Assembly: GCA_043817235.1 (NCBI GenBank)
Contig: JBDRHA010000005.1
Location: 1 to 41,594 of the forward strand
Direction of reading: 5' to 3'
DNA from: Candidatus Shapirobacteria bacterium
GTDB lineage: Bacteria; Patescibacteriota; Microgenomatia; UBA12405; BS750m-G30
Length of the DNA: 41,594 nt
Shown here: piece by piece, positions 5,041 through 35,006 of the stretch
Numbering within the stretch: the stretch's first letter is position 1
Layout: each line of letters opens with the position of its first letter
Notes under the pieces: generated by a model
The model's database searches: none
Told to the model about the DNA's origin: nothing
What the model saw: the letters and a program-made list of their open reading frames with translations, nothing else
Translations under genes and position numbers: made by a program

Positions 5041-5261
5041 GGAAAATAATTAATAATTTAACCCAAAGATTTATTTTAAGGGAAATTGGCGGCAAAGGTC
5101 TTCTGGTTTCCTTAAAGGAAATTTCCCCCAGTTTAATTTTTCTTAATTCTACCGCCGTTTTAGTCTGGAAAACACTTTCTGCTGATTCCTCGGTTAAGCA
5201 CTGTGCTCAAATGTTGGAAAAAAAATATGATGTTCCCAAAGAAGTGGCAAAAAAGACATAG
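5037..5261 (+). CDS. PqqD/RRE peptide-binding domain (0-frame product; fused to the rSAM domain after a -1 shift)
   Basis: PqqD pattern 'FILREIGGKGLLV...LIFLNSTAVLVWKTL...LEKKYDVPKEVAKK'. The expected final helix 'DIENLFKEI' lies in the -1 frame. Confidence 0.8.
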   Translation: MRKIINNLTQRFILREIGGKGLLVSLKEISPSLIFLNSTAVLVWKTLSADSSVKHCAQMLEKKYDVPKEVAKKT

Positions 5262-6328: not shown

Positions 6329-6329
6329 A

Positions 6330-6502
6330 AAACTTGGTTTAGCCTGTTTAATAAAAAGTTTTTCTGCTTGTTGAGAGCTTGCTGATTGGGTAAATAAAGG
6401 CTAACTCTGATAATCGGGATGAGTTTTGTCCTGAAAAGTAAGTTAGGAAATAAAAACCAGCGTTGATAGAGCTAAAAAAGCAATGGATTTTTTCTTTTCC
6501 AT
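6330..6502 (-). pseudogene. Degenerate copy of the 5' end of the vanW-like gene
   Basis: Translates MEKKKSIAFLALSTLVFIS*LTFQDKTHPDYQS*PLFTQSASSQQAEKLF. This aligns in register with VanW 'LAYQEKIYPG...LSLTEAENLL' and contains two stops. Confidence 0.6.
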
Positions 6503-6529
6503 TAGTTAATATAATAGTATCATGGAAAA
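6480..6529. repeat. 50-bp perfect direct repeat, right copy; contains two divergent ATGs 19 bp apart and a TATAAT box
   Basis: Identical to 4192-4241. Confidence 0.95.
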
Positions 6530-7859
6530 GAAAAAGCTTATTTTGGTTATTTTCGGGATTATCTTGCTTGGCTTGTTGGCCTTCGGCGTTTATCAAATTA
6601 TTTTTAAGAAAAAAGTGCCGGTTTTGCCGAAAGGCGAAGAAGTTACGCTAACTTATTGGGGCTTATGGGAGCCGTCGCCGGTAATTAATGCGGTGATTGC
6701 TTCTTTTGAAAAAGATCATCCGGGAATTAAAGTGGATTACAAGATGCAATCTAGCCAAGATTATAAAGCGAGACTCCAAAATGCGCTTGCTTCGGGCCAG
6801 GGTCCGGATATTTTTCGCCTTCACCAAACTTGGGTGCCGATCATGCAAAAGCAACTAGCTCCGGTTCCGGACACCCTGAGCCAAACTTTAGGATTGGAAA
6901 ATAATTATTTTCCGGTGATCAGCAAAGCTATTTCCCGAAGCGGCCGCTATTATGCGCTTCCTTTGGAAATAGATACTTTGGCTCTTTACTATAATAAGGA
7001 TTTATTAGCCGTGGCCGGCGGTCAGCTGCCGCGGACTTGGTGGGGACTGCAACAGCTGGCAAAGCAAATTACTCAGAAAACCGCTGACGGCCGGATTATT
7101 ACTGCCGGGGTAGCCCTGGGAACAACGAACAATGTTGACCATTTTTCCGATATTATTGGCTTAATGCTTTTGCAAAACGACGCTGATCCGGCCGAGCCTA
7201 ATGCTCTTACTCTAGACGTTTTGCAATATTATTTACTTTTTGCCAATAAAGAGGGTGTTTGGGATAAAACCCTTCCTTCTTCCACGCTTCAGTTTGCTTC
7301 CGGCAAACTGGGTTTTTATTTTGCTCCTTCTTGGCGCTATTTTGAAATTAAAAAAGCCAACCCGGGCTTGAATTTTGGAATTGCTCCTGTGCCTCAATTG
7401 CCGGAATCTCGGGAAATTGACTGGGAGGCGGCGGAAGCCGGGGAAGGCGAACTGACTAATATTACTTGGGCTTCCTTTTGGGTGGAGGGGGTATCCGCTG
7501 TCTCTAAAAACCAAGAGGCGGCTTTTGAATTTTTAGGTTATTTGGCCTCTGCTGAAGGGCTTCGCCAGTTTTACCAAGCGGCTTCCCAAACTCGGGATTT
7601 TGGGGAAATTTATCCGCTGACCAATTTAGCTAATGAATTAACGACCATTCCCTATTTGGCTGCCTTTGTTCAACAGGCGCCAATGGCGGACTACTGGTAT
7701 TTGTGTTCGGAAACTCATGATTCTTCTTTAAATGATCTGATGATTAAGTACTATGAAGATAGCTTAAACGCTCTTTCTGGCACAGGGTCAAATGATGAAG
7801 CAGTGCTGGAAACGCTCCAATCCGGCATTTCCCAAGTCCTTTCCCAATACCAGCTTTGA
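6522..7859 (+). CDS. Membrane-anchored ABC-type sugar-binding protein (family 1 SBP)
   Basis: N-terminal TM; 'LTYWGLWE...FEKDHPGIKVDY...GQGPDIF', 'YALPL...LALYYNKDLL', 'FASGKLGF'. No adjacent permease or ATPase. Confidence 0.85.
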   Translation: MEKKKLILVIFGIILLGLLAFGVYQIIFKKKVPVLPKGEEVTLTYWGLWEPSPVINAVIASFEKDHPGIKVDYKMQSSQDYKARLQNALASGQGPDIFRLHQTWVPIMQKQLAPVPDTLSQTLGLENNYFPVISKAISRSGRYYALPLEIDTLALYYNKDLLAVAGGQLPRTWWGLQQLAKQITQKTADGRIITAGVALGTTNNVDHFSDIIGLMLLQNDADPAEPNALTLDVLQYYLLFANKEGVWDKTLPSSTLQFASGKLGFYFAPSWRYFEIKKANPGLNFGIAPVPQLPESREIDWEAAEAGEGELTNITWASFWVEGVSAVSKNQEAAFEFLGYLASAEGLRQFYQAASQTRDFGEIYPLTNLANELTTIPYLAAFVQQAPMADYWYLCSETHDSSLNDLMIKYYEDSLNALSGTGSNDEAVLETLQSGISQVLSQYQL

Positions 7860-14532: not shown

Positions 14533-14919
14533 TTAGGAAAGAATAGTAATGTCTTTCATTGGGTAATCGGATCGATTGAAAGTAACCAGTGTTGCCTGAT
14601 AATACTTGGCCGTAGCCGCGATTAAACAATCAGGTAATTTTAAATTTCGACCTTGACGCAAGAATTCTTTCCGATATTCAGCAGCTAGTCGGGCGGTGCT
14701 CGTTTCTACCGGAAGGGTACCAAATTCGTCTAAAAAAAGCTCAAATTTTTTGGCTTCTTGGGGAGAAGCGCCGGTTAAAAACTCGGCCGCCGTAATCGCA
14801 GAGATTGCCGCTTGTTTATCTTTAATCCACTTTCTAAAGCGAGAAGCCCAAGGCTTTTTATTGGCCAAAGCGTAAATTAAAATATTGGTATCAAGTAAAT
14901 AGAGTTTCATTTTTCCCAT
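14533..14919 (-). CDS. vapC: VapC-like PIN-domain toxin
   Basis: 'YLLDTNILI', 'SAITAAEF', 'LPDCLIAATA...LVTFN.SDY'. Confidence 0.9.
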   Translation of the reverse strand: MGKMKLYLLDTNILIYALANKKPWASRFRKWIKDKQAAISAITAAEFLTGASPQEAKKFELFLDEFGTLPVETSTARLAAEYRKEFLRQGRNLKLPDCLIAATAKYYQATLVTFNRSDYPMKDITILS

Positions 14920-15212
14920 TCTTGACGTAAGTTTTTCAGCCAGCGGTCAAGATTGCGGGGTGTTTTCCATTCCGGGTGACTTTTCAAAGAAACACTACCG
15001 ATTAGCTGATTAGCCAGCCCCTCTAATTTTTGATTGATTGCCTTTTCGGAAACGATTCTCAAGTAAGCAGCTTTGCGTAGATATTCCGAAAGGCTTTCGT
15101 CGGTGGTTTTCCTTTGAGCATCAATAATTTTTTTTAAAAGACGAGTTAAAATTACTTGGGTTCTTATTTTCGGGCTGTTTAGAACTTCAGTCCATCGACT
15201 GTTTATATTCAT
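14907..15212 (-). CDS. Putative antitoxin (RHH-like) of the PIN toxin
   Basis: Overlaps the toxin start; 'IRTQVIL...ESLSEYLRKA' RHH-like pattern; C-terminal 'WLKNLRQEW'. Confidence 0.7.
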   Translation of the reverse strand: MNINSRWTEVLNSPKIRTQVILTRLLKKIIDAQRKTTDESLSEYLRKAAYLRIVSEKAINQKLEGLANQLIGSVSLKSHPEWKTPRNLDRWLKNLRQEWEK

Positions 15213-16376: not shown

Positions 16377-16415
16377 CAGTTGATTTTACCATTGCTTTCT
16401 ATCTAAAATGGATTG

Positions 16416-17753
16416 ATGAAAAAAGGATTTTGGCTAATAATTTTATTTTTTCTTTATACTCCCAAAAGCGCTCGGGCCGAATTATCCAGCACTCAGGGCA
16501 TAGGTATTTGCCATTCGGCTGCCAGCCTAGACGAACAATTTAGCTGGTCTTATGAAGCCGGGCCAAGTGTTCAGTGGAAATATTTAGAGCCTAGTGCCGG
16601 AGTTTATAATTTTTCTGCTCTTGATGAGTTGATTAGAAGCTATCAAGGTCGAGGAGTAAAAATTTGGCTTTCTCTTCAAACTGTAGCTGGCAACCACGCC
16701 GCTCCGGCCTGGCTGGAGTCAATGGGAGCCAGGTGGTTTAAAATCGTTCGTTCAGATGGCCGAGATCATGGCCTGCTTGCCCCCTGGGATCAGGTTTATT
16801 TAGAGAGGCTGGCTATTTTTTTAAATGCGGTAAACGAGCACTTGGAAAGTCAATCTTCGGCTTACCAGCAAACCATTGGGGGAATTATGATGATGTCTGG
16901 CGGAATGTACGGAGAAATGCAGCTTTGGTCTGGGGGAGCGGAGGGAATTCTTATTAGCTCTTTAGGCTTAAATCCTGATAACTTAAATCAGGTTTATACT
17001 TTTCGGGCTGCTTACTATAATTCAGTTTTAAATTTGGTAGATCTTTATTTAGAAACCTTTAAGCGCTGGCCGGTTGCCCTGCAATTGGGCTATAACTCTC
17101 TTTTTATTCACCCGGAAACCAGGGCGCTTATTTCTTTAGATCAGGCGGTGGTAGAGAAAAAGGTGCCGGAGTATGGGGCCAGGCTGTTTTTAAAATATAA
17201 CGGCTTAGACCCCACTAATGTGGGCGATGGACTGGATAGTGCTCGCCAAAAAATCGCTAATTATTACCGTGATCTTTTTTCCAAGTGGTCTTCTCAAGCT
17301 CAGGTTGGCTTTGAAATCGGCCACCCTTGGCTTTTTGCTAATCCTCCGGATCAGGCCAGTTTTTTGGGAGGAAATTACTCTTGGGTAGTAGACAGATTTA
17401 CTAATATTTTTGAAATCGCTAAAGCGGCAAAGGTAAGCTTTGTTTGCTTTCAGACGGAAATGATCAGCGGCTTGCGCAGTGTTCCCGGGTGGCAGAAATT
17501 TGATGAGGATCTTAGGGCAGTTCCGTTGCCGACAACTACCTTAGATTGCTCGTGCTCGAGCTCGGCTGGACGGAGCTTTCTTGCTCAGGCGGATGCTGAT
17601 TGCAACAGCCAAACTGATTTAATTGATTATAACTACTGGTTTGAAGCTTTTGTTCGGAACAGTAGTTTTTATCGTCAGCAGGCAGATTTTGACTGCTCTG
17701 GAAGGGCAGGCATTGACGATTATGAAATTTGGCGGCAGAATTTTGCATTTTAA
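16416..17753 (+). CDS. Secreted clan-A glycoside hydrolase (GH42/GH35-like N-terminus) with C-terminal dockerin
   Basis: Signal peptide; 'WKYLEPSAGVYNFSALDELI', 'APAWL', 'PWDQVY'; paired EF-like repeats 'ADADCNSQTDLIDY...ADFDCSGRAGIDDY'. Confidence 0.75.
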   Translation: MKKGFWLIILFFLYTPKSARAELSSTQGIGICHSAASLDEQFSWSYEAGPSVQWKYLEPSAGVYNFSALDELIRSYQGRGVKIWLSLQTVAGNHAAPAWLESMGARWFKIVRSDGRDHGLLAPWDQVYLERLAIFLNAVNEHLESQSSAYQQTIGGIMMMSGGMYGEMQLWSGGAEGILISSLGLNPDNLNQVYTFRAAYYNSVLNLVDLYLETFKRWPVALQLGYNSLFIHPETRALISLDQAVVEKKVPEYGARLFLKYNGLDPTNVGDGLDSARQKIANYYRDLFSKWSSQAQVGFEIGHPWLFANPPDQASFLGGNYSWVVDRFTNIFEIAKAAKVSFVCFQTEMISGLRSVPGWQKFDEDLRAVPLPTTTLDCSCSSSAGRSFLAQADADCNSQTDLIDYNYWFEAFVRNSSFYRQQADFDCSGRAGIDDYEIWRQNFAF

Positions 17754-17762
17754 ATTTTTAAA

Positions 17763-19133
17763 ATGAAAAACAATAAGGTTTTGCCGAAAGTTCCGGCTTT
17801 AAAAAATATTATCGGGCCATCTTTTGTGCTCTTAGGGCTGGCTCTGGGCTCAGGCGAACTTGTTTTATGGCCCTACTTAGCTTCTCAATTTGGCTTAGGT
17901 TTGCTTTGGGGAGCGGTTTTGGGTATTTCTTTTCAATTTTTGCTAAATGCTGAGGCAATGCGCTACGCTCTTTGCTGGGGCGAATCGGTTTTTGTGGGCT
18001 TTCGGAAGCTAAATAAGTTTCTTCCGTTTTGGTTTATTATTTCTACTTTTATTCCCTGGTCTCTTCCCGGTTTTTCTTCGGGAGTAGCGGAAATTCTCTC
18101 TTCTCTTTTGGGTATTGAAAATAGCGTGTGGATAGCGATTTTCTTTTTGATTTTTGTCGGCCTAATTTTATCTTTAGGAAAAACTTTATATAAAACCCTG
18201 GAGCTTTTTCAAAAAACGGTCGTTTTGCTGGGCTTGCCCTTTATTATTTTTTTAGTGATTTTTTTTGCCAAGGGAGGAGATTGGCTTAAGCTGGCTTTGG
18301 GAATAGTGGGTAAGGGCGAGGGCTGGCGGCTAATCCCATCGGAAAATTCCGGATTGATATTGGCTTCCTTTTTAGGAGCGATTGCTTATGCTGGGGCAGG
18401 GGGAAATTTGAATTTGGCTCAGTCTTACTATATTAAAGAGAAAGGCTTTGGCATGGGCAGGTTTAGCACTAAAATTAGCTCTTTATTTAATAAAAGCTCC
18501 CCTAAGGCCGAGCTTGGCGGCGCTCTTTTTGCTAATACTCCTCAAAATCAAAAACGCTTTTTCTCCTGGTGGAAATTAATTCAAAAAGAGCACCTGCTGG
18601 TTTTTTGGTTTTTGGGCTTAATAACCATATTGCTTTTATCTCTGCTTTCTTACACCCTGGTTTTTGGCCAAGCCGGCCGCCAGGGTTTTGATTTCCTTTT
18701 TAGCGAAAGCCAGGTGGTGGGCCGCTCTTTGGGTGGTTTTGGCCGAGTGGCTTTTTTACTGCTGGCGGCCGGTATGCTTTATTCCACCCAAGTGGGAGTT
18801 TTGGAATCAACTTCTCGGATTATTTCCGAAAACCTGCTTTTGGTTAATTACCAAAAAGGGAAAAAAGTAAACGCTTCTTTATATTTTTATTTAGCTCTTT
18901 GGTTTCAGATTACACTCGGCATTATTGTCTTGCTTTTGGGCTGGACCGAGCCTCGCTTCTTGCTAACGCTCTCGGCAGTGCTTAATGCTTTAAGCATGAC
19001 TATTGCTTTTCCTTTAATCTGGCTTTTGAATAAGAAGAAACTGCCAAAATTTGCCCAAATGCCGCCCTTAAGGCAAGTTTTTTATTGGCTGGGATTTTTG
19101 TTTTTAGCTGTCTTTTTAGTGGTTATAATTTAA
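17763..19133 (+). CDS. Nramp-like (YcsG-type) membrane transporter
   Basis: 'IIGPSFVLLGLALGSGELVLWP' and about 11 hydrophobic segments. Confidence 0.75.
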   Translation: MKNNKVLPKVPALKNIIGPSFVLLGLALGSGELVLWPYLASQFGLGLLWGAVLGISFQFLLNAEAMRYALCWGESVFVGFRKLNKFLPFWFIISTFIPWSLPGFSSGVAEILSSLLGIENSVWIAIFFLIFVGLILSLGKTLYKTLELFQKTVVLLGLPFIIFLVIFFAKGGDWLKLALGIVGKGEGWRLIPSENSGLILASFLGAIAYAGAGGNLNLAQSYYIKEKGFGMGRFSTKISSLFNKSSPKAELGGALFANTPQNQKRFFSWWKLIQKEHLLVFWFLGLITILLLSLLSYTLVFGQAGRQGFDFLFSESQVVGRSLGGFGRVAFLLLAAGMLYSTQVGVLESTSRIISENLLLVNYQKGKKVNASLYFYLALWFQITLGIIVLLLGWTEPRFLLTLSAVLNALSMTIAFPLIWLLNKKKLPKFAQMPPLRQVFYWLGFLFLAVFLVVII

Positions 19134-22297: not shown

Positions 22298-23632
22298 TTA
22301 GAATATTTTCTTCAGCTCCCTAATATTCCCAATTCGGTTTTGGTTAAAAATCTTTTTTATCCCCAAATTTCGGGCTTGCTTTTTCCTGCCCGTTTCTTGG
22401 GAGGCTTTTCCTACTTCGCCAAGCAAGGAAACTTCGCCCCAAAAACTGCTTAAAGCAGGGAGGGGCTTAGATTTATAAGAAGAATAAAGGCTGGCGCAAA
22501 CCGCCAGATCCACGGCCGGCTCTTTAATCGTTAATCCTCCGGCAACATTTAGAAAAATATCATATTTAAAAAGAGGAAGATAAAGATATTTTTGGGTAAC
22601 GGCAATCAGCATTTCTGCCCGATTCCGGCTCAATCCGGTAATGACTCGTTTGGGGTAGGGAGTAAAGCTTTGAGTGGTTAAGGCTTGAATTTCGCTATTG
22701 AGAAGCCGGCTTCCTTCTTCGGCCACCGTAAAAGCTGAGCCAACTTTCGTGGAGGTGAGATTTTTAATTAATATCTCATTTTCTGCGGGTATTAGGCCCC
22801 TGGCGGTCATTTGAAAAAGGCCGACCTCGTCGGTAGGACCAAAGCGGTTTTTAGTGGTTCGAAGCAAGCGCAAATTCGCTCTTTTCTCTCCTTCAAAATA
22901 AATAACCGTATCCACCGCATGCTCTAAAACCTTCGGCCCGGCAATATTGCCTTGTTTGGTAACATGGCCAACGAGCAAGGTTGGCACATAGTTTCTTTTG
23001 GCAAAGCTAATAAGCCTTTGGGCGGATTCTCTTACCTGGCCAACAGACCCGGCCATGCCCGACAAGTCAGCGGTAGACAAACTTTGAATAGAATCAATGA
23101 TGACCAGAGGTGGCCCGCCCGCCTCCTTGGCGGGCGAGGCGAGAGCGGGGGTTTGATTGAGGTAATCAATAATCTGGTCAACGTTAGTCGCTGGCAGCAA
23201 AAATAAATTAGAGTTTTTCAAAGAGGTTTTTTGCAGCCTTTTGACGCGCAAAAAAACCTGCTCCGGTGATTCTTCGCCGCAAACATAGTAGATGGTCTGT
23301 CGATGAGGCAGACTTAAGGCTAACTGTGTTAGCAAGGTGCTTTTGCCAATACCGGGCTCGCCGGAAAACAAGACAACCTGGCCAGGAACCAAGCCGCCGC
23401 CCAAGACCTGATCTAGCTCTTTAATATTAGTTTCGGTTTTTCCAATTTTCTCTTTTTTAATTTGTTTTAGATTGAAGGCTGATAAAGAAGCGCTATTCTG
23501 GCTTTTTGTTGGCGACTTGATTACGGTTTCCACCAACGTATTCCAGGCACTGCAGTTTGGGCATTGGCCAAGCCACTTGGGAGAAGAGCAGTTGCAGTTT
23601 TGGCAGATAAAACTAGTGCGGGTTTTTGCCAT
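22298..23632 (-). CDS. radA: DNA repair protein RadA/Sms
   Basis: Zn finger 'CQNC...WLGQCPNC', Walker A 'GEPGIGKSTLL', 'KNRFG', Lon-like C-terminus. Confidence 0.98.
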   Translation of the reverse strand: MAKTRTSFICQNCNCSSPKWLGQCPNCSAWNTLVETVIKSPTKSQNSASLSAFNLKQIKKEKIGKTETNIKELDQVLGGGLVPGQVVLFSGEPGIGKSTLLTQLALSLPHRQTIYYVCGEESPEQVFLRVKRLQKTSLKNSNLFLLPATNVDQIIDYLNQTPALASPAKEAGGPPLVIIDSIQSLSTADLSGMAGSVGQVRESAQRLISFAKRNYVPTLLVGHVTKQGNIAGPKVLEHAVDTVIYFEGEKRANLRLLRTTKNRFGPTDEVGLFQMTARGLIPAENEILIKNLTSTKVGSAFTVAEEGSRLLNSEIQALTTQSFTPYPKRVITGLSRNRAEMLIAVTQKYLYLPLFKYDIFLNVAGGLTIKEPAVDLAVCASLYSSYKSKPLPALSSFWGEVSLLGEVGKASQETGRKKQARNLGIKKIFNQNRIGNIRELKKIF

Positions 23633-23679
23633 GATTGATTATAACAGGAGAAATAATAAATCCTAATTGTGAGTTCTTT

Positions 23680-23853
23680 GTCATTCCGAGCGAAGCCCCG
23701 CGAGTCGCGGGGCGAAGTCGAGGCCATGCCCGCCATCCGGCCTGAGCCGTCAGGCGATGGCAGGCGGGAATCTTTGGGATCGATTAGAATATTTTTCTGA
23801 TTTAAGAAAGATCCCTCGGTTACACTCGGGATGACAGGAATCCTCGCAATGAC
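23680..23853. repeat. Composite nested REP-like element
   Basis: gtcattccgagcgaagccccgcgagtcgcggggcgaagtcgagg...ctcgggatgac...ctcgcaatgac, with an inserted TGCCCGCCATC...GATGGCAGGC unit. Confidence 0.85.
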
Positions 23854-24006
23854 AACGAGGTTTTCCACATAAACATATTTATATGTTAACACCCCTCGTT
23901 TTGAACCTAAAATACATAATAACATATACTACAGGGTAGGGGGAAAAGGGGAGTAGAATAATTTATAGGACTTGACAAGTTTTGAAAAAACATGTAAATT
24001 CAGTTG

Positions 24007-24156
24007 ATGAAAGAAAAAATACTTCAGTTTTTGGGCAAGGCTAGAGTCGTTTTTGGGCCTAAGAATAGCAAAAAAGACCGCGCGGGCGACTTAAAAAGAT
24101 CAGGAAAATTAGGGGGAAGACTGATTATTATGCAGGCGACGACAACTTTACTTTAA
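24007..24156 (+). CDS. Possible leaderless small basic protein (49 aa)
   Basis: TTGACA(23972)-17bp-TAAATT lies 6 nt before the ATG; translates MKEKILQFLGKARVVFGPKNSKKDRAGDLKRSGKLGGRLIIMQATTTLL. Confidence 0.35.
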   Translation: MKEKILQFLGKARVVFGPKNSKKDRAGDLKRSGKLGGRLIIMQATTTLL

Positions 24157-24167
24157 CATTATATAAA

Positions 24168-24231
24168 ATGAAAGAGCATCGTTAGCGTCTACACGGGCTA
24201 GGAGTGTGTGCGCATAACAATGCCCCTTCAC
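24168..24231 (-). ncRNA. Candidate small hairpin RNA
   Basis: Minus-strand GTGAAGGGGCATTGTTA pairs with TAACGATGCTCTTTCAT using G-U pairs and is followed by a T-run; upstream TTGACA-17bp-TATTTT. Confidence 0.35.
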
Positions 24232-24318
24232 TTTTAAAAATACACGGGCTTAAAATATTTGTCAAGAAAAAATTTAACCCTTTTTTAGATAAATTTAGGC
24301 CGCGTTAGCCTTGATTTA

Positions 24319-24381
24319 AGACCGTTTTTCTTGGAGGGTGGTATGTGGGGCAGGCATATCACCTTCCACTAAAGATGGTCT
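24319..24381 (+). other. Long imperfect hairpin
   Basis: AGACCGTTTT..TGGAGGGTGGTATG pairs with CATATCACCTTCCA..AAAGATGGTCT, with G-U pairs on the plus strand. Confidence 0.45.
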
Positions 24382-24455
24382 TTTCGCTTCGCGATAATTT
24401 CTAAGCTCCAAACAAATACCAAATTCTAATTCTTAAAATTCTAAACGAAGACGGT

Positions 24456-24527
24456 GTCATTGCGAGGAGTCGGCGACGAAGCAATCCCCTTGGGAAAGCA
24501 AGATTGCCACGCTTCGCTCGCAATGAC
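24456..24527. repeat. GTCATTGCGAG...CTCGCAATGAC palindromic element (RPE-like)
   Basis: gtcattgcgaggagtcggcgacgaagcaatc...gattgccacgcttcgctcgcaatgac. Confidence 0.85.
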
Positions 24528-24557
24528 AAAGTTTACGTTTTTTGTTATCCTGATTTT

Positions 24558-25760
24558 GTGATCAAAAAATTTCTTTTCTCTTTTTTTCTTCTTGCTTTCT
24601 TTATTTTTCCTCCTCCCAGTTTTGCTTCCTCTCCTTTTGGCATGAATGTCGATCTGTTTTGGACCTGGGACCAGCTGCTGCCGCCGGGGAAGTGGGAATT
24701 AATAGTCAGAACCATGGCAGAAGCGGGGGTTAAAAACGTCCGCCTGCCTATTTACTGGCCGGAAATTCAAGGCCTAACTGAATCAAAGGGAACTGACCCG
24801 AGCCTTTGGAAATGGGATAAGCACGATCAGTTTATTAAACTTCTAGTTGATAACGATATCGCGCCCTTGGCTTATTTTATGTTTACCCCCCAATGGGCGT
24901 ACCAAGATCCAAATTGCAACCAAGATGGGACAGTGCGCTGGCAAGGACGCATTTGCGCCCCCAACCCTCAAGTTTTTGCTTATTTTGTGGAAAAAACAGT
25001 TGAACGCTATGGCTGCGGACCGGGCGGAAAATGCCAGATTAAAAATTGGGAAATTTGGAACGAACCGGATTTAAACTCCAATACTTATTTTTATGGCAGT
25101 TTATCCGACTATGGGCAAATGCTTTATCGGGGCTATCGGGCAGTGAAAAAAAGCGATCCTCAAGCAATAGTCGTTTTAGGCGGAATCAGCCAAGCGGGCA
25201 TAGAGCCAGGCGCCTATCTTGACCAACTGCTTAGCAAAACCTACCTAAATAAACCCGCTTCCGCCTACTTTGATGTTTTTAATTTTCACTATTATTATGG
25301 CCATACTAATGACCTGGTTTACGACGGGCTAAAAAGAGTCAAGCAGGTTTTGGCCAAATATGGGCTGGAAAGTAAGCCAGTTTGGATGACAGAAGTAAAT
25401 CGGGGCGGGCAGTGCGTGGACCCGAATTTGGTCGCTGCCGAACTAACTAAAGTTTTTGAGCCGCTAATTGCCGCCGGAGTAGAAAAAATTTATTGGTTTG
25501 AGGTGGCGGCCAAAGATAATTTGAATATTTGCGGGCAAGCTAATCGCTTTCGCCACCCTCCTTTTTTAGCTCGTATCTATGAGGGGGATAAAGTGGTTGA
25601 TTATCGGCTAATTTCGCCAATGTTTAATGCTTATCAAGCGATGACCGAAGCGAGCATAATTGACGAAATGGATTTAGCAAGACTTCTTTCTTCTTGGCCC
25701 TCCGACTCGGAGGGCAAGGCTAAATTACAAAATTTGCTAAGCAATTGGAAAACTAAATGA
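24558..25760 (+). CDS. Secreted clan-A glycoside hydrolase (GH39/GH5-like) with truncated dockerin-like tail
   Basis: GTG 24558 gives a signal peptide; acid/base 'WEIWNEPD'; 'NFHYY'; nucleophile 'PVWMTEVN'; tail 'IIDEMDLARLLSSW...LQNLLSNW'. Confidence 0.85.
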   Translation: MIKKFLFSFFLLAFFIFPPPSFASSPFGMNVDLFWTWDQLLPPGKWELIVRTMAEAGVKNVRLPIYWPEIQGLTESKGTDPSLWKWDKHDQFIKLLVDNDIAPLAYFMFTPQWAYQDPNCNQDGTVRWQGRICAPNPQVFAYFVEKTVERYGCGPGGKCQIKNWEIWNEPDLNSNTYFYGSLSDYGQMLYRGYRAVKKSDPQAIVVLGGISQAGIEPGAYLDQLLSKTYLNKPASAYFDVFNFHYYYGHTNDLVYDGLKRVKQVLAKYGLESKPVWMTEVNRGGQCVDPNLVAAELTKVFEPLIAAGVEKIYWFEVAAKDNLNICGQANRFRHPPFLARIYEGDKVVDYRLISPMFNAYQAMTEASIIDEMDLARLLSSWPSDSEGKAKLQNLLSNWKTK

Positions 25761-27055
25761 TAATCTTACTGCTTTTAACTTTTCTTTTTTTCTTTTTCCG
25801 GCCGGTTTCGGCCGTTTCCGACCGTCCCTTTTTGATCGGCTGGTTTGCCTCGGTAAATGGTCAGCAAAAATTAGCTGAGTTTTCCCAGAAAGGGATGAAT
25901 TTGGTGATGCCCTATCATACTGAATCAGCTGGTTTAAATATTATTCGGGGATATCTGGACGAGGCTCAAGAGCAGGGTATTAAAGTTATGCTTGATTTAG
26001 AAGATAATAGCTACCGAGATGGCACGAGAAGCTTTGAGCAATCAATAGGTTGGGCCAGATCTATTGTGCAGAATTTTAAAGATCATCCGGCTGTTTATGG
26101 CTGGTATCTGGCGGATGAGCCAGAATTGCACCAGCCCCAGACTAGTGCTGAAAATAGGATTGAGTATTACCAGATTATTAAAAGTCTTGACTCTCAAAAT
26201 TACGGGGCGGTGGTGCATTGGGCCCGGCCCTATTCGGAATACACAGAAGCCTATGATATTTTAATGAACGACTGGTACCCGCGGGATTGCAAGCTTCCAA
26301 GTACAGGCAAGTGCAGCGGCAGTAATGATCTTGGCGAGTTTAATTATATGGTTCGCTATTCTTATGATATTTGGAAACAGGGAATCGCCTTTGCCCGCCA
26401 AAACGAAAAAGCAGGCTATATTGCAGTAGCTTGGGCTCAGGATTATACCCGAGGCAACTTCAAAGAAGGTGATAGAGATTTAACCCGGCCGGAATTTCGC
26501 TACCATGTTTATACGGCTCTGGTCCAGGGGGTAGATGGAATTCTTTTTTGGTGGGAGCCCTGGTCTGGCAATTATGTTAAAGATTTGGTTTATGGAATTA
26601 CCAAAGAAATTCAATCTATCGGTGTTCAGATGAACAATGGCTGGACTAATAATCCTCAAATTACAGTAAATCAGTCAGCCGATAATTTGGTTTACCGCTA
26701 TGGCGTTGATGGCAATAGTCACGTTATTCTGGCCGTGAATATTAGCGGTCATAGTAATAATCAGAATGTTCGGCCGGAGACAGTAGGTCAGAAATTAACA
26801 GGAGTTCGTTTTCAGCTGCCGGCCAATTTAAGTACAAACCAAGTAAGGGTTTTGAATGAAAACAGAACGATACCGGTGGTTAATAACAGCTTTGTTGATA
26901 ATTTTGAACGTTACCAAGTTCATATTTATGAGTTTGATTTTGAGCCTGAGCTTATCGACGAAATGGACTTGGCTGCTTTGCTTTTTTCCTGGAATACTTT
27001 GTCCAGCCCTAAAAGCGAGTTGCAAGTTTTGCTAAACAGCTGGACAACTAGATAA
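25757..27055 (+). CDS. Secreted clan-A-like glycoside hydrolase with truncated dockerin-like tail
   Basis: Signal peptide; 'FKDHPAVYGWYLADEPE', 'DILMNDWYP', 'GVDGILFW'; tail 'LIDEMDLAALLFSW...LQVLLNSW'. Confidence 0.75.
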   Translation: MIILLLLTFLFFFFRPVSAVSDRPFLIGWFASVNGQQKLAEFSQKGMNLVMPYHTESAGLNIIRGYLDEAQEQGIKVMLDLEDNSYRDGTRSFEQSIGWARSIVQNFKDHPAVYGWYLADEPELHQPQTSAENRIEYYQIIKSLDSQNYGAVVHWARPYSEYTEAYDILMNDWYPRDCKLPSTGKCSGSNDLGEFNYMVRYSYDIWKQGIAFARQNEKAGYIAVAWAQDYTRGNFKEGDRDLTRPEFRYHVYTALVQGVDGILFWWEPWSGNYVKDLVYGITKEIQSIGVQMNNGWTNNPQITVNQSADNLVYRYGVDGNSHVILAVNISGHSNNQNVRPETVGQKLTGVRFQLPANLSTNQVRVLNENRTIPVVNNSFVDNFERYQVHIYEFDFEPELIDEMDLAALLFSWNTLSSPKSELQVLLNSWTTR

Positions 27056-27083
27056 TTTTTCTGGTATTCTAGATTTTAGGATT

Positions 27084-30056
27084 ATGAAAAAGACTTTTTA
27101 CCTGCTTCCGATTTTCGTTCTTCTTTTTGGTTTGCTTGGCGCTTCTTATTTGGTTCAAAGACAGCAAAATCCGGAAAATAAAGCGGCTGCCGGTGCTCTT
27201 ATTTTAGCGGATGGCCCCCATCTTTTTTTGGACGATTATTTAATTGAAAGCAAAACTAACATCATTCGGAAAACTAATCAGCCAGCGCGTAATGCTGGCA
27301 ACCCCGTGATCCCCAGTATTGAAATGGAAAACGGCAATTTTAACTGCACCAATTTTAATTACGAGGTGGAAGTGGTGTTTGACCCTAAAGATAGTAAATT
27401 TAAGATGTGGTATAGGCAATACGATGAAAGTGTGCCTACTTATCCGGCTCACTCAGTTTATCGGGAATCTAGCGATGGAATTAATTGGGGAGTTTGCCAG
27501 CAGGTGGCTTACAGCGTGCGATTGGATGACACACAAAACAAAGGCTTAAATAGCAACCGCCGGTTTATTTCCAGTGAAACCTATTTTGATCCGGCTAATA
27601 GCGCCAGAAGAGGAATGGATTTATTTTCCTCTGCCAATGGCATTAACTGGCAGGAAGAACCAAATAATCCTGTGCTGACTTATAATAAACTCCTCCCAGC
27701 AATTAAAAATGACATTTGGGATCTTTATTATGACCCTTTGACCCAAAAATATGGTGTTTTGAGCAAGCCGGAAGTGCAGCATAGCTTTACGGACAGTGGC
27801 GGCCGAGCTCAAGACTATCAGGGCCGAACCACCTATCTTAATACTAGCACTAATTTAATCAGCTGGACTAATGGCACGATGTTATTTCCGCCCAGTTCCC
27901 AAGACGAAGGCCAAATCCAATGGTATGGCTGTGCCAACGCTATGCGTCGGGGAGATCACCTGATCTGCTTTAGCAAGGTTTTGCATGATGATTTTAAGTC
28001 TCCTGATACTCCGGATAAAGCAACAACCTATGTTCCTAATCCGGCCCGACCGAATCCTCTTGAGCCGCGAGCAGTTTATGGTATTGGGTATACGGTTTTG
28101 GCATATAGTCACAATGGCATTGATTGGCAGCGTGATCGGGTAGATAAGATTATCACCGGCAATAATCCCAAGGCCACTTCCGCCTCCGGCTATCGCCGGG
28201 GCGCTTATTTGGTGGACTTAAATAAATTAAGCGCTGACAAGAATGTCTTTTTTGCTCCTAATCCGGATTCTGCCGCTTGGGACCATGCCCATGCTTGGAT
28301 AGACAGTGTGGTCGAAGTGGGCGATTTGCTTTATTTTTACTATGGTGGCTACAAGTTTGGCCATAAAGTTTATTCGGATCGGGGATTGGGTTTAGCCATT
28401 TTGAAAAAAGACCGCTATGCCGGCCAGTATGTGGGCAAAGATACTGCCGGCCGCACCGGTATTTTGACTACTAAAACTATTAAAACGGATGCAGACAAGC
28501 TTTATTTAAATTTAGATACCGGGATGAGCTATGATGGCCCGGGTCAAGCACAAATGGAAATTCTTGATGTTAATAATCCTAATCGGAGCCAAGCTTGCAC
28601 TTTGATTGGCCGAGTGGATGAGATTAGAAAGGAAGCAGCTGGTTGCAATATTGCTGACTTTAAGAACCGAGATATTAAACTTAAGTTTACTTTAAAAAAT
28701 GCGATGCTTTATGCGATTTATTTAGACGGCGATAGCACCGGCCCTGCGCCTACCAGTGGGCCTGGTTCGCCTACGCCCACCTTAACTCCTATCCCTACGC
28801 TTACTTTAATGCCTTCGCCCACGGTTAATCCGAGCCCGGGGCCTGATCGCATTTCCGCCAAAAAAGGAGCGGCTACCCTATATGAAGAGTATGCTCAAGC
28901 TAGCGAGCTGGGAGTCAGTAGTTTTTATCGCTACAGCCCTTACAGCGCCAGTCAAAATACTGCTCCTATGCTGAAAAAAAGTCATATTGACAAGTTGAGA
29001 GCTAATCCTGATCCGGAAAACTGCTCTGTCTCCGACAAGCAAGCAATAAATGTTGCTAATGAATGTCCGGCTCGAGGTATTAAGCAAACTGTAGAAAGAC
29101 GAGGCCAAGGCGGCTATTGGTTGATTTTAAATGAACCGGAATGGGAAGAAGATGCGTATTATCACGGCAATGTAAACCAAATGGCGGATGACATAGCTTT
29201 TACGATAAGGTTTATTAAACAGTATGACCCGGGGGGTAAATTTATTGTGGCCTGGTATCATGGTATACCTAATGCCTGGTTTAATATAGCCCAAAATTAT
29301 GGCTTAAGTCGAGACTACCAAAAAGTCTTTGCCGGCTGGCATATTCATCTTTATCATTGGCAAGGCCAGCTTGGCAGCACCAATAATATTGATGCTTATT
29401 TTAATACTTTTAAAAACCAGATTTTAAACCACCGGGTAGTCGCAGATAAGAGTTCTTGGGGAGCGGAGGTCTGGCTCACTGAGTTTGGCACTTTGATGAC
29501 CGATGGCAATTGCAATAGCCTTAGCAATCAAACAGGCTGTGAATGTCGTTTTGACAGAATAGATAATGATCCCAATCAGCTTTGTGTTAATTTCATGCAA
29601 AAGTTAGTGAATTGGCTGGAATCTGACCAGTCGCCAGTAGATCGCTATTTTTGGTGGAGCTTTGGCCGATGTGATCCTTCTGCCTTAAGCGGAAGCGATG
29701 CTGGCAGCCGCAATTTATGTTTTGGTGCTTTAACAAATAAAGAGGGAAATAATATTTCTTTGAACAACTTGGGCAGAGCTTTTGCGGCATTACCCTTCGA
29801 ATCGGAGGGCACTCCTACTCCCACTCCCACTCCCACTCCGGAGGTGGCCTGCCCCGCAGCTGCGGAGGGAAATTTAAACTGCGATTTGGCCGGTATTATT
29901 GATGAGCTGGATTTGGCGATTTTGCTCTCTTCTTGGAAAACAGAGCCGCCCGCGCCCGATCCCCGGCCGGGCCAGGCATCAGCTGATATTAACCACGACC
30001 AAAGGGTAGATTTTGTTGATTTACAAATTTTAATGTCTAGCTGGACAATTAACTAA
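27084..30056 (+). CDS. Membrane-anchored bimodular glycosidase: beta-propeller (GH32/43-like) + GH128-like clan-A domain + dockerin
   Basis: Propeller with Asp-boxes 'HLFLDDYLIE...GNPVI...FKMWY...SSDGINW'; PT linkers; 'LNEPE...HIHLY...VWLTEFG...DRYFWW'; dockerin 'GNLNCD..GIIDELDLAILLSSW...ADINHDQRVDFVDLQILMSSW'. Confidence 0.75.
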   Translation: MKKTFYLLPIFVLLFGLLGASYLVQRQQNPENKAAAGALILADGPHLFLDDYLIESKTNIIRKTNQPARNAGNPVIPSIEMENGNFNCTNFNYEVEVVFDPKDSKFKMWYRQYDESVPTYPAHSVYRESSDGINWGVCQQVAYSVRLDDTQNKGLNSNRRFISSETYFDPANSARRGMDLFSSANGINWQEEPNNPVLTYNKLLPAIKNDIWDLYYDPLTQKYGVLSKPEVQHSFTDSGGRAQDYQGRTTYLNTSTNLISWTNGTMLFPPSSQDEGQIQWYGCANAMRRGDHLICFSKVLHDDFKSPDTPDKATTYVPNPARPNPLEPRAVYGIGYTVLAYSHNGIDWQRDRVDKIITGNNPKATSASGYRRGAYLVDLNKLSADKNVFFAPNPDSAAWDHAHAWIDSVVEVGDLLYFYYGGYKFGHKVYSDRGLGLAILKKDRYAGQYVGKDTAGRTGILTTKTIKTDADKLYLNLDTGMSYDGPGQAQMEILDVNNPNRSQACTLIGRVDEIRKEAAGCNIADFKNRDIKLKFTLKNAMLYAIYLDGDSTGPAPTSGPGSPTPTLTPIPTLTLMPSPTVNPSPGPDRISAKKGAATLYEEYAQASELGVSSFYRYSPYSASQNTAPMLKKSHIDKLRANPDPENCSVSDKQAINVANECPARGIKQTVERRGQGGYWLILNEPEWEEDAYYHGNVNQMADDIAFTIRFIKQYDPGGKFIVAWYHGIPNAWFNIAQNYGLSRDYQKVFAGWHIHLYHWQGQLGSTNNIDAYFNTFKNQILNHRVVADKSSWGAEVWLTEFGTLMTDGNCNSLSNQTGCECRFDRIDNDPNQLCVNFMQKLVNWLESDQSPVDRYFWWSFGRCDPSALSGSDAGSRNLCFGALTNKEGNNISLNNLGRAFAALPFESEGTPTPTPTPTPEVACPAAAEGNLNCDLAGIIDELDLAILLSSWKTEPPAPDPRPGQASADINHDQRVDFVDLQILMSSWTIN

Positions 30057-30068
30057 AAATCGCTGATA

Positions 30069-31106
30069 ATGATAAAAGCAATGACTAAGAAAACAAAGAT
30101 TTTGATTTCTTTTTTGTTTTTAATAGCAGTTCTGCTTATTGCCATTAATTTGGTTGAGCAAAGACAGGAGCTAAGAAGAGGAGCAGCCGGAGGAGAGGGG
30201 CAGGTAGATTTCCGGCTTTCTTTGGTCGATCAGCCAAGAGAAAGGGGAGAGGAATTTACTGTTCAAGTAAATTTAGTAAGCAGCAGTGCCCAAGGCATAA
30301 GAGTTGCCGGAGCGGATTTGGAGTTTGATCCGGCTGTTTTGGAAATAAGCGAAGTAAACTGTGATTCTCAGTTTCCAGCTGCTGGGCCGGAAAATGGCGT
30401 TGACGGCAATAAAATCAACTTAACTTGTTATCGCTATCAGGAAAATACTGGCCCGCAGCCGGCTTTGATTATAGCTCCAGGTGAGCCCTTGGCTTTGGGC
30501 AGTTTTAAAGTTAAAGTTAAGACAGATGCTGTTTTAGGGGAGACTTTACTAGAATTTACCCGCTCTCGCGTGCCAAACGAAAATGGCTCATTAGACATTT
30601 CCTTGTCTGGTCAGGGAGGAACAATTACTGTTGCTGATCTGCCCACTGCCGCACCTTCTCCAACTTTAACTCTGGCTCCGACTTTTACTCCCACGCCTAC
30701 TCTTGCGCCCACTGCTACGCCAACACCAACCTTAATACCGACACCGACCAGTACGCCTTCGCCGACGCCCGTTCCTTTAGGATGCGAAGAGCCCTGCATT
30801 AGCACTGCTCAGTGCGAAAGCGGCTTAACTTGCACGACCAATAATAATCAATTCGAATCCCGCCTTTGCTGGGGTGAGGCGTGTGAGTCTTCCCAAGAGT
30901 GCAGCTGCCAAACTACTTTTGGGCAGACGGCTAAGGCTAGAGGAGATGGGAATTGCGATAATAAAACCGATATTTTGGATTTTGATTTGTGGTTTAATGC
31001 CTTTATCCGAGGTTCTTCCTCTGCTCAAAGCATGGCAGATTTTTCTTGCAATGGCCGGGTTTCTATTGATGACTTTGAAATCTGGAGAGCCCATTTTGAG
31101 TTTTAA
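30069..31106 (+). CDS. Membrane-anchored cohesin-domain protein with PT linker, Cys-rich module and dockerin (mini-scaffoldin)
   Basis: N-terminal TM; cohesin pattern 'GEEFTVQVNL...VAGADLEFDPAVLEISEV...LGSFKVKVK...GETLLEF'; dockerin 'GDGNCDNKTDILDF...ADFSCNGRVSIDDF'. Confidence 0.75.
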   Translation: MIKAMTKKTKILISFLFLIAVLLIAINLVEQRQELRRGAAGGEGQVDFRLSLVDQPRERGEEFTVQVNLVSSSAQGIRVAGADLEFDPAVLEISEVNCDSQFPAAGPENGVDGNKINLTCYRYQENTGPQPALIIAPGEPLALGSFKVKVKTDAVLGETLLEFTRSRVPNENGSLDISLSGQGGTITVADLPTAAPSPTLTLAPTFTPTPTLAPTATPTPTLIPTPTSTPSPTPVPLGCEEPCISTAQCESGLTCTTNNNQFESRLCWGEACESSQECSCQTTFGQTAKARGDGNCDNKTDILDFDLWFNAFIRGSSSAQSMADFSCNGRVSIDDFEIWRAHFEF

Positions 31107-31123
31107 TTAAGTATTTTGTCCTT

Positions 31124-31244
31124 GTCATCCCCGCGCAGGCGGGGATCTGTTCTCAATGTCATCCTGAGCGAAGCCCCGCGACTCGCGGGGCGAAGCCGAA
31201 GGATCTTTTAGCTCCGAAGATCTCTCGACTACGCTCGAGATGAC
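31124..31244. repeat. Composite REP-like element (reverse orientation)
   Basis: Reverse complement of the core of 22118-22238; includes a dRS3-like GTCATCCCCGCGCAGGCGGGGATC. Confidence 0.9.
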
Positions 31245-31288
31245 AATACTTGCTTTTTTAGCTCATTTTCTCTAGAATTGGGAACTCC

Positions 31289-32362
31289 ATGAAAGCGCTA
31301 ATCGCCGAACTTAAAGAGTTTTACCAAGCGTATTTAGGCTTTTTCTTTGGCTGGGGAAAGAGTGCTTTTTGGCGTCTGGATAAAGGAAAAAAGTTTTTTT
31401 CCGGCTTGCTTTACCGTCAGAGAGGCCGGTTTGCTCAGCCTCTTTCTCATCTTTGGCTGGGCTTTTTACTTCTTTTGGGAATCTTTCTTTCTCCCTTAAT
31501 TGAAGAAAAATTACGCGGCGAGGCTATGGGCTGGCAGGAAGCGGCTGAAAGCCTAGAAGTAATGGGGCAGGGAGATTATTTAAGCTCAGCCGATTATGTT
31601 TCCGCTGGTATTCGGGGAGAAGTGGTGGAGTATGTAGTTAAGCTCGGAGATACAATATCTTCTATTGCGCAGAAATATGATATTAGCGTGGATACGGTTT
31701 TATGGGCGAATAATTTGACTAGCAGTGCCAAAATAAAAGAAGGCCAGCGGCTGAATATTCCACCGGTGACGGGGATTATTCATGAAGTGAAAAGGGGAGA
31801 GACGGTTTATTCTTTAGCCGAAAAATATCAGATTTCTGCCCAAAATATCGTCAACTATCCTTTTAATAGTTTTAGCAATGACGAAACCTTTGCTTTACGC
31901 ACTGGCCAAACTTTGATTATTCCGGACGGAGTGATGCCTGCGGCTACGCCGCGCCCGATTGCTGTTTCCCAAACTGTGCAAGCGGGGTCTTTTTCCGGTG
32001 CCAAGGGGACATTTGTCTGGCCGACTTCCGGCCGGATTACCCAGAACTTCGTTTGGTATCATCCGGGCACTGATATTGCCAATAAAAGCGGGCCGGTAGT
32101 GGTGGCGGCGGATGCCGGCCAAGTTGTCTCAGTAATTTACGCTCGCTATGATTACGGCAATCATGTTGTTTTGGATCACGGCAATGGCTACCGCACCTTA
32201 TATGCTCACTTAAGCAGCATAAGTGTTTCGGCTGGCCAAACAGTTTCTCAAGGTCAGCAGATTGGAATAATGGGCTCCACGGGAAGAAGTACCGGCGTTC
32301 ATTTGCATTTTGAGGTGATCAAAAACGGGGTAAAGATCAATCCCTTAAGCGTACTTCAATAA
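31289..32362 (+). CDS. LysM x2 + M23 peptidase (murein endopeptidase)
   Basis: LysM repeats 'YVVKLGDTISSIAQKY' and 'HEVKRGETVYSLAEKY'; M23 motifs 'HPGTD', 'YAHL', 'STGVHLHFE'. Confidence 0.93.
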   Translation: MKALIAELKEFYQAYLGFFFGWGKSAFWRLDKGKKFFSGLLYRQRGRFAQPLSHLWLGFLLLLGIFLSPLIEEKLRGEAMGWQEAAESLEVMGQGDYLSSADYVSAGIRGEVVEYVVKLGDTISSIAQKYDISVDTVLWANNLTSSAKIKEGQRLNIPPVTGIIHEVKRGETVYSLAEKYQISAQNIVNYPFNSFSNDETFALRTGQTLIIPDGVMPAATPRPIAVSQTVQAGSFSGAKGTFVWPTSGRITQNFVWYHPGTDIANKSGPVVVAADAGQVVSVIYARYDYGNHVVLDHGNGYRTLYAHLSSISVSAGQTVSQGQQIGIMGSTGRSTGVHLHFEVIKNGVKINPLSVLQ

Positions 32363-34750: not shown

Positions 34751-35006
34751 AGGCTTGATAAATCAAACCCCCTGCAAAAAGACAAATCAACCAAATGCCA
34801 TTGCCAGAAACAATGTCATCTCGAGCGTAGTCGAGAGATCTTCGGAACTAAAAGATCCTTCGGCTGCGCCCCGCAGCTGCGGGGCTTCGCTCAGGATGAC
34901 TATTTACAGTGTCATTCCGAGCGAGGCCTCCGAGTCGAGGAATCTTTTGTAGTTAAAGAAGAGATTAGTTAATTCTCAAAGATCTCTCGGTTACACTCGA
35001 GATGAC
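34751..35006. repeat. Composite nested REP-like element between convergent genes
   Basis: Same core as the other copies plus a second GTCATTCCGAG...CTCGAGATGAC unit. Confidence 0.9.

Follow-up and report, generated by a model that had tools for sequence, protein, structure and literature searches.

Four genes of Candidatus Shapirobacteria bacterium, here named P1 to P4, probably form a module for enzyme display, part of a system that assembles proteins at the surface through cohesins and dockerins, in a Shapirobacteria-like member of the Candidate Phyla Radiation (CPR), with P4 as an anchored adaptor that would show glycosidases ending in one of two kinds of dockerin tail, type A. They lie in the window, a stretch of 41,594 nucleotides (NCBI GenBank assembly GCA_043817235.1, contig JBDRHA010000005.1, forward strand) that is contig C5 of the genome analysed (912,686 bases in 11 contigs, 95% complete). 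The open reading frames (ORFs) of P1, P2, P3 and P4 follow each other head to tail, all on the plus strand: P1 and P2 overlap by 4 nt, a gap of 28 nt separates P2 from P3, and one of 12 nt separates P3 from P4. The genes form a tightly spaced operon, and the four co-oriented, closely spaced genes of the original prediction, which had been made from the DNA letters and their translations, are borne out by these coordinates and spacings. The features of the operon are as follows, with the evidence for each in parentheses.

24504-25760, plus strand: ORF of P1, with a probable GTG start at 24558 (ORF list).
24558-25760, plus strand: P1, a secreted GH5-like (clan GH-A) glycosidase with a type-A mini tail (Pfam, N-terminus, motifs).
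25653-25757, plus strand: mini tail of P1, two type-A helices with both Ca loops absent (alignments A2 and A3, relatives-only profile).
25757-27055, plus strand: P2, a secreted TIM-barrel glycosidase-like protein with a type-A mini tail (sub-threshold Pfam, structure matches, DEP motif).
26948-27052, plus strand: mini tail of P2, a loop-less type-A dockerin remnant (alignments, relatives-only profile).
27084-30056, plus strand: P3, a two-domain enzyme of 990 aa with a full type-A dockerin (Pfam, AF2, structure alignment).
27195-28763, plus strand: N-terminal domain of P3, a 5-bladed beta-propeller plus beta-sandwich with a glycosidase/phosphorylase-like fold (AF2, Foldseek, VIA-align).
28851-29798, plus strand: C-terminal domain of P3, a GH128-like barrel of clan GH-A (PF11790, NEP/TE motifs).
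29856-30053, plus strand: type-A dockerin of P3, with two F-hand repeats (alignments, sub-threshold Dockerin_1, complex model).
30069-31106, plus strand: P4, with an N-terminal transmembrane helix, a cohesin, a PT linker, a Cys-rich stretch and a type-B dockerin (Pfam, AF2, Foldseek).
30240-30632, plus strand: cohesin domain of P4 (PF00963, AF2, Foldseek).
30924-31103, plus strand: type-B dockerin of P4 (alignment A7, AF2, tail profile).

P4 had been described as a membrane-anchored cohesin-PT linker-dockerin protein, and this description holds. The Cohesin hidden Markov model (HMM) proposed as a check, PF00963, scores 31.6 bits by hmmscan (residues 58-188) and 33.9 bits in a six-frame search, over a cut-off of 24.1. 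A library of 1.8 billion proteins yielded 75 relatives of the P4 type, all transmembrane-cohesin proteins and many with type-A or type-B tails, 68 of which entered the alignment used for modelling (A1). In the AF2 model (sequence P0001, which begins four residues after the first codon of the 345-aa P4 ORF), residues 42-184 fold into a beta-sandwich at pLDDT 97-98, the PT and Cys-rich linker is disordered, and the C-terminal module is helical (pLDDT 94-98). The model agrees with the nine-stranded jelly-roll sandwich fold of cohesins. Foldseek returned 143 matches in the PDB at E <= 0.001; the top matches listed are cohesins from solved cohesin-dockerin complexes (E 1.2e-9 to 1e-5, TM-score by target 0.64-0.78), with 6kgf_C as the best (E 1.2e-9, TM-score by target 0.74) and with 4dh2, 4fl4, 1aoh and 2xdh also among them. 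The doubt attached to the original prediction, that this domain might not be a cohesin fold, is thereby removed.

When tail HMMs are applied to the 5197 six-frame ORFs of the genome, the dockerin tails fall into two families. Type A comprises the tails of P1, P2, P3 and a 701-aa Cys-rich/FN3 protein encoded at a second locus, on contig C6. Type B, which has as its hallmark a Cys inside each Ca loop, comprises those of P4, of a further enzyme of the window (P5) and of two C6 products, a 550-aa cohesin protein and a 526-aa right-handed beta-helix protein. In the alignments, the two loop-helix repeats of an F-hand dockerin are present in P3 and the 701-aa protein (type A) and in P4 and P5 (type B); within the operon, the full two-repeat type-A dockerin is found on P3 only. 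P1 and P2 end in tails of about 35 aa that retain only the helices IDEMDLAxLLxSW ... LQxLLxxW, without both Ca loops. The claim that all three enzymes end in dockerin-type tails thus stands in full for P3, whereas P1 and P2 carry tails that are significantly related to dockerins yet loop-less. Indeed, an HMM made exclusively from tails of other genomes recovers P3 at E 8.5e-20, P1 at 7.7e-10 and P2 at 6.7e-7 among the same ORFs, followed by the 701-aa protein (0.002) and a 650-aa C6 protein (0.018), with unrelated ORFs from E 2.2; these values rule out chance low-complexity matches as the source of the P1 and P2 tails. A recent duplication is also ruled out, by the DNA of the two tails: 60 of 105 bases (57%) are identical, the differences in the helices are synonymous and the linkers unrelated, so the helices have been conserved and not recently copied. 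Loop loss is graded, for an intermediate tail, with the first loop intact and the second lost, occurs in two genomes of the same family. One-loop truncated dockerins of Ruminococcus flavefaciens are reported to be functional by experiment (PMC12270676). For a two-helix, loop-less dockerin we encountered no functional precedent, in literature searches that were not aimed at loop-less dockerins.

Complex prediction of the cohesin with the tails had been suggested as a further check, and it came out in favour of binding for the pair to which it was applied. The model joined the P4 cohesin (residues 36-192 of P0001) to the P3 tail of 72 residues (alignment A3), with two Ca included. Three runs gave ipSAE values of 0.83, 0.88 and 0.90 (median 0.88), and the highest of three controls gave 0.46; the mark used is reached by 116 of 157 solved complexes and by 2 of 215 mismatched pairs. 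Contact agreement between the runs is at least 96%, and the partner pLDDT is at least 90. Predicted contacts on the dockerin fall in residues 22-33 (DELDLAILLSSW, first helix) and 59-72 (last helix), which are exactly the segments kept by P1 and P2. On the cohesin they involve strands 75-81, 111-117, 129-131 and 153-163 (DSSP), which, by strand order, we take to be the face used in solved type I complexes. The model supports binding of the P3 tail by the P4 cohesin, without showing it.

From these elements we propose the following arrangement. The N-terminal hydrophobic helix would hold P4 in the membrane and expose its one cohesin, and this cohesin would capture the type-A tails of P1 to P3, whose genes immediately precede that of P4; most of the predicted contact is made by the first dockerin helix, DELDLAILLSSW, together with the C-terminal helix. 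Since P1 and P2 have kept exactly the two contact helices, the same docking mode is proposed for their short tails, possibly without calcium. The type-B dockerin of P4 would most likely plug into another cohesin encoded on C6, in the manner of an adaptor scaffoldin, or else give a further docking point; self-polymerisation of P4, which had been raised as a route to polymers, is not favoured. Finally, rare glycosidases would have been fitted with tails onto an ancestral docking kit shared across the order.

The distribution of the components was assessed in 61 genomes of the order, our own included. The Cohesin family occurs in 57 of them (54 above cut-off), the type-B tail HMM matches 42 and the type-A tail nine; of 132 genomes of the order, two have P2 and two have the N-terminal domain of P3. 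The cargo attached to type-B tails is varied. Among 20 ORFs from 16 relatives, hand-picked for strong scores and long frames and not a random sample, there are three subtilases, a BNR_4 + CBM_4_9 protein, a GH42-like orthologue of P5, a WbsX-like protein and one with a Bsp-like repeat; four have Dockerin_1 as their sole family and nine are without a Pfam family at E <= 1e-4. Seven of the 20 tails pass the Pfam Dockerin_1 cut-off. From the prevalence of cohesins and type-B tails, and from this varied cargo, we conclude that the docking kit (cohesins plus type-B dockerins) is old, general and order-wide, with the glycosidases as a recent and rare accessory cargo.

Synteny is conserved with one other genome. 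The only named relative of P4 in the species-genome collection belongs to a Candidatus Shapirobacteria metagenome-assembled genome (MAG; 42% identity, E 4e-73, locus L028); it was found with a 3-row P4 alignment, the single P4 sequence having found no relative. In that locus radA comes first, followed by a 974-aa glycoside hydrolase (GH) of two domains with a tail of type A, then by the orthologue of P4, and after it by an M23/LysM peptidase and a TPR protein. Compared with P3, the 974-aa enzyme (4053-6977) has its two domains the other way round, with 63% identity over 338 residues for one and 32% over 585 for the other, and its type-A tail is of the one-loop form. The two enzymes occupy orthologous positions in loci of conserved gene order and differ by a domain swap.

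The window does not hold the whole system. On contig C6, at about 125.9-133.7 kb (125876-133685; locus L009, 5877-13685), six genes of the cohesin/dockerin system lie in a row, and encode in order:

701-aa protein, first of the six: Cys-rich/FN3, type-A tail.
550-aa protein: transmembrane helix, cohesin, Cys-rich modules, type-B dockerin.
650-aa protein: two cohesins, then a tail of a third kind with weak likeness to dockerins (dockerin_GC 20.9 bits, cut-off 29).
207-aa protein: transmembrane-cohesin.
255-aa protein: cohesin, PT linker, C-terminal transmembrane helix.
222-aa protein: FN3.

With this locus, the count rises by five cohesins and by three to four dockerin proteins. When the 550-aa protein is left out of the HMM for the P4-type cohesin, the HMM still recovers it at 1.3e-21, and the others more weakly (1.3e-6, 6.5e-6 and 0.014). 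No carbohydrate-binding module (CBM) was found by Pfam on the 650-aa protein with its two cohesins. The 526-aa beta-helix protein of C6 carries its type-B tail at E 1.1e-26 and matches Beta_helix at 33.1 bits. In total, about six cohesins and eight tails of dockerin type are encoded in this 0.9-Mb genome. The idea of a minimal enzyme-display system therefore survives in part: the display core is supported in silico (cohesin HMM, fold, complex at 0.88), but with five more cohesins on C6 the system is not minimal.

Several further observations concern the proteins of the system. A motif, LVQ-x-x-QE-x-R-[RK]-x-A-A-G, follows their N-terminal hydrophobic helix (in P4, window 30069-30200). As a regular expression it is found in this genome, among real-looking ORFs, only in P4 and the 701-, 550- and 650-aa proteins of C6 (C6:125876-131604), looser versions being present in P3 and the C6 beta-helix protein; it recurs in the relatives L031, L033, L034, L039, L049 and L050, and one Ala is at least 90% conserved in the 68-row alignment. 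The NCBIfam scan of eight system proteins revealed no known N-terminal signal family, only sub-threshold dockerin_GC matches. The motif may be a processing or sorting site, and the N-terminus may be cleaved. Modules of about 40 residues rich in Cys (DGSxCxxxGGxCSAxxC...LDCPxD...HCC), for which no family was found, are repeated in the 701-aa and 550-aa proteins (L009 5877-9642), and P4 has a shorter Cys-rich stretch between PT linker and dockerin. An adjacent pair of cohesin proteins of about 200 and 230 aa, like the last two cohesin proteins of C6, recurs in many genomes of the order.

The enzymes of the operon were thought to contribute four catalytic domains, a count that is plausible: the assignment is firm for one, marginal for one, and at fold level or weak for two. 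The NEP/DEP and TE motifs noted earlier are indeed present in the translations of P1, P2 and P3. P1 matches Pfam Cellulase/GH5 (PF00150) with 35.5 bits over a cut-off of 23.5 and contains WNEPD (the NEP acid/base motif) and MTEV (the TE motif with the nucleophile Glu), showing both the profile match and the two catalytic motifs by which GH5 enzymes are recognised; from the GTG at 24558 it begins with a signal-peptide-like N-terminus, MIKKFLF.... By sequence it has no significant solved relative (best 5jvk, E 0.0084). In P2, Pfam gives sub-threshold clan GH-A matches only (DUF4434 with 26.4 bits, cut-off 30; GH99; GH2_C). A weak match links it to the GH158 structure 9oro (E 3.2e-4), its structural neighbours in the ESM Atlas are GH42-like barrels, and the DEP motif reads ADEPE; as a lead only, its nearest ESM Atlas feature cluster consists to 100% of Dockerin_1-bearing proteins (score 0.92). 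An NCBIfam scan assigned no family to P1, P2 or P3.

P3 is built, from the N-terminus, of an anchor or signal, the beta-propeller domain, a PT linker, the GH128-like barrel, a second PT linker and the type-A dockerin. The barrel matches PF11790 (Glyco_hydro_cc) at 22.6 bits (cut-off 21) over residues 781-859, a match confined to profile positions 151-209 of 237; it contains LNEPE (NEP) and LTEF (TE), and is 63% identical to the first domain of the relative's enzyme in the Shapirobacteria MAG. The N-terminal 523 residues provide, at fold level, the fourth glycosidase-like domain. Their AF2 model (pLDDT 84.5, pTM 0.89) has GH32, GH130 and BT_0996 as top Foldseek matches; VIA-align places BT_0996 (5mt2) first (Z 23.6, root mean square deviation 3.7 A over 294 residues), then GH130 phosphorylases (Z about 23) and GH43 and GH62 (Z 20-22). 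The predicted fold is thus that of 5-bladed beta-propeller glycosidases/phosphorylases (GH137, GH130, GH43, GH62, GH32). No Pfam family covers this domain; two of the four homologues scanned have sub-threshold GH32N and BT_1020-propeller matches. Its 252 homologues are mostly unnamed proteins of Planctomycetes and Verrucomicrobia. To judge from the families, the substrates may be beta-glucans, beta-mannosides, arabinofuranosides or galactosides, perhaps beta-glucan or beta-mannan-like glycans.

Outside the operon, a fifth dockerin-bearing glycosidase had been noticed, and it is real:

16413-17753, plus strand: P5, a secreted GH35/GH42-like glycosidase with a type-B dockerin (tail 17571-17750; Pfam, structures, tail HMM).

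P5 matches Glyco_hydro_42 with 25.7 bits and GH35 structures at E 1.4e-6, and an orthologue of the same architecture exists in a related genome (G002, L048). Its tail is of type B, however, unlike the type-A tails of the operon enzymes; as the tail of P4 is of type B too, P5 need not use the P4 cohesin. At 17763-19133, 9 nt downstream of P5, lies a 456-aa multi-pass membrane protein to which no Pfam family could be assigned even at E <= 1; a role as sugar importer is unsupported. The orphan sugar-binding protein reported at 6522 is confirmed: the protein at 6522-7859 matches SBP_bac_1 with 112.8 bits and is the sole solute-binding protein of the genome, and no BPD_transp_1 permease was found anywhere in the 95%-complete assembly, which leaves it without an ABC importer.

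Around the operon, promoter-like and terminator-like sites at 23600-31400 are near expectation (22 vs 13.0 +/- 3.8 and 13 vs 9.8 +/- 3.3 in shuffled DNA, respectively). In one groundwater metatranscriptome, small contigs match parts of P2, P3 and P4 without mismatch, 17 of 30 bins being uncovered; contigs from an RNA library are not proof of transcription. A repeat element, GCTTCGCTCG[C/G]AATGACAAAG, occurs with its complement at 23676-23697 and 24443-24540, in intergenic DNA upstream of the operon, and again at 34911-34928 (three matches at <=3 mismatches vs 0.01 expected), and makes inverted repeats around 23.7-24.5 kb. Directly downstream of P4, at 31289-32362, is an M23 peptidase with two LysM domains, which has the same position in the Shapirobacteria MAG locus. 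Further upstream, at 14533-15212 on the minus strand, a PIN-domain protein (70.1 bits) overlaps an upstream 101-aa ORF and resembles a toxin-antitoxin pair.

Several points weigh against enzyme display by P4. The Dockerin_1 check turned out negative: no match to PF00404 in the window reaches the cut-off of 22.9 bits (P3 15.5 and 20.2 bits, P4 13.5 bits), and P1, P2 and P5 have no Dockerin_1 match; the 701-aa protein of C6 scores 26.3 bits in the six-frame search and 21.7 bits by hmmscan. Searched against the PDB, the tail profiles find dockerins without significance (E 0.05-0.6): seven of the eight type-A matches are dockerins (E 0.05-0.63), as is the single type-B match (E 0.16). P1 and P2 are devoid of both Ca loops, which canonical dockerins require for folding, and the published truncated dockerins still retain one. 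P4 has no CBM by Pfam. P4-like cohesins of other organisms themselves carry type-A tails, which, if specificity were the same, would imply self-association. The complex model can pass through likeness to the many solved cohesin-dockerin complexes, and close cousins of a true partner pass too in the calibration of the tool; our own alignments and the riding Ca lie outside that calibration, and the model spans one pair only, giving no specificity of type A vs type B. Lastly, P2 and the N-terminal domain of P3 are called glycosidases by fold or weak matches only.

Some of these points would suit another history, in which the kit is a general surface architecture or adhesion system, only the P3 dockerin is functional, and P1 and P2 are secreted free while their tails decay. 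The wide occurrence of cohesins (57/61) beside the rarity of these GHs (2/132), the nine of 20 type-B cargo proteins without a Pfam family and the loss of both Ca loops agree with it. Yet the helices of P1 and P2 are kept at the protein level despite diverged DNA and an unrelated linker, the mini tails sit at the exact C-terminus of two unrelated catalytic domains, an independent HMM finds them (E 7.7e-10 and 6.7e-7), and the predicted interface uses precisely the helices that they retain; we consider such decay unlikely.

Another partner could also be imagined for P4. If its cohesin bound type B, then P4, the 550-aa protein, P5 and the beta-helix protein would chain, type A would go to the C6 cohesins, and the polymers envisaged in the original prediction would be right. 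Both P4-type cohesins of the genome do sit on type-B-tailed proteins, type B is the common dockerin of the order (42/61), and cousins of a true partner may pass the complex tool. This chaining is nonetheless quite improbable in our view: in this genome as in the Shapirobacteria MAG the operon ties P4 to type-A enzymes, the pairing of its cohesin with a type-A tail scores 0.88 vs 0.46 for the best control, and full-length P4 (pTM 0.56) shows no confident intramolecular docking, which is weak evidence. Non-cellulosomal cohesin- and dockerin-like modules of unknown role are widespread, and with Dockerin HMM scores under the cut-off these folds might serve some other role, for example glycan or host binding, gene adjacency being incidental. 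We give this hardly any credence, as two loci of so small a genome (0.9 Mb) hold cohesins together with dockerin tails, the synteny is conserved and the complex model reached its mark. Display of type-A enzymes by P4 thus stays the probable reading.

The closest parallels are cellulosomes with adaptor scaffoldins (Ruminococcus flavefaciens, Acetivibrio cellulolyticus, C. thermocellum CipA). In them too, enzymes bear dockerins at the C-terminus, and a cohesin protein without catalytic function terminates, like P4, in a dockerin of a different type; cellulosomal cohesins are the top fold matches of P4, and in the PDB, by sequence, full-length P4 comes closest to the CipA cohesin-X-dockerin II chain 3kcp_A (E 0.1). 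In contrast to a cellulosome, P4 bears a single cohesin in place of an array, Pfam detects no CBM on it, and its anchor is an N-terminal transmembrane helix, not SLH or sortase; P4 therefore lacks the several cohesins and cellulose-binding CBM of a strict cellulosome scaffoldin. The cargo is also different, being GH5-like, GH128-like, beta-propeller and GH35/42-like (also beta-helix) instead of the GH9/GH48 cellulase set; as to dockerin-borne cellulases, only the GH5-like domain of P1 was found, no search of the whole genome having been aimed at GH9 or GH48. Moreover, the host has a 0.9-Mb CPR genome, and its dockerins score under the Pfam cut-off. Cohesin-dockerin pairs also join glycosidases or surface proteins outside cellulose degradation, as in the Clostridium perfringens glycosidase complexes and with the Archaeoglobus fulgidus cohesin. 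Structures of these non-cellulosomal pairs (2jh2, 2w1n, 2vo8, 2xdh) are among the fold matches of P4; the present system departs from them in its order-wide kit, its transmembrane-cohesin-linker-dockerin architecture and the conserved motif after the transmembrane helix. As to the tails, the truncated group-2 dockerins of R. flavefaciens (PMC12270676) have likewise lost part of the duplicated F-hand and still bind cohesin. The one-loop form of the same-family genomes is comparable to them, whereas P1 and P2 have two helices and neither loop.

In the CPR, the original prediction knew of no characterised example. This stands for biochemistry, as neither structural nor biochemical work on a cohesin-dockerin system of the CPR turned up in our literature searches, but reports of cohesins and dockerins in Microgenomates do exist. 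Expressed type I/II cohesin and type III dockerin proteins, together with glycoside hydrolases, are mentioned for a Shapirobacterales (Microgenomates) genome (bioRxiv 10.1101/2021.08.21.457207, PMC9123182), in a passage that also cites "cellulosomes" in a Roizmanbacterium (Geesink et al. 2020). These reports reach the same lineage level, and in the passage concerned they are one-paragraph annotations without architecture, dockerin types, truncated tails, pairing or distribution (PMC9123182). A dockerin-domain protein is reported to be essential in a cultivated Saccharibacterium (PMC10633639). A term search of a 2024 survey of cellulosome-displaying bacteria (PMC11557425) gave no occurrence of Patescibacteria, candidate phyla or Microgenomates. 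Thus, the presence of cohesin/dockerin proteins in Microgenomates is already known, from passing reports; new are the transmembrane-cohesin-linker-dockerin family, the division of its dockerins into two types, a gradation of Ca-loop loss that ends in two-helix tails, the spread across the order and the cargo enzyme with swapped domains.

A broader proposition is tempting and, on balance, doubtful: that a CPR order mounts its exoenzymes and surface proteins through a cohesin-dockerin kit with its own motif after the transmembrane helix, and that loop-less tags of about 35 residues still bind cohesin, possibly independently of Ca, as the smallest natural dockerins. If functional, such tails would extend the truncated-dockerin finding, and designer enzyme assemblies would gain very short tags. 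The surfaces of CPR bacteria, whose genomes are tiny, are poorly understood, and how these bacteria hold enzymes and adhesins bears on feeding and on partner attachment; ecologically, the display could be read as polysaccharide scavenging or as an attack on the host envelope. A kit present in 57 of 61 genomes, taking on rare, horizontally acquired glycosidases by the addition of a tail, would be a compact mechanism of surface mounting.

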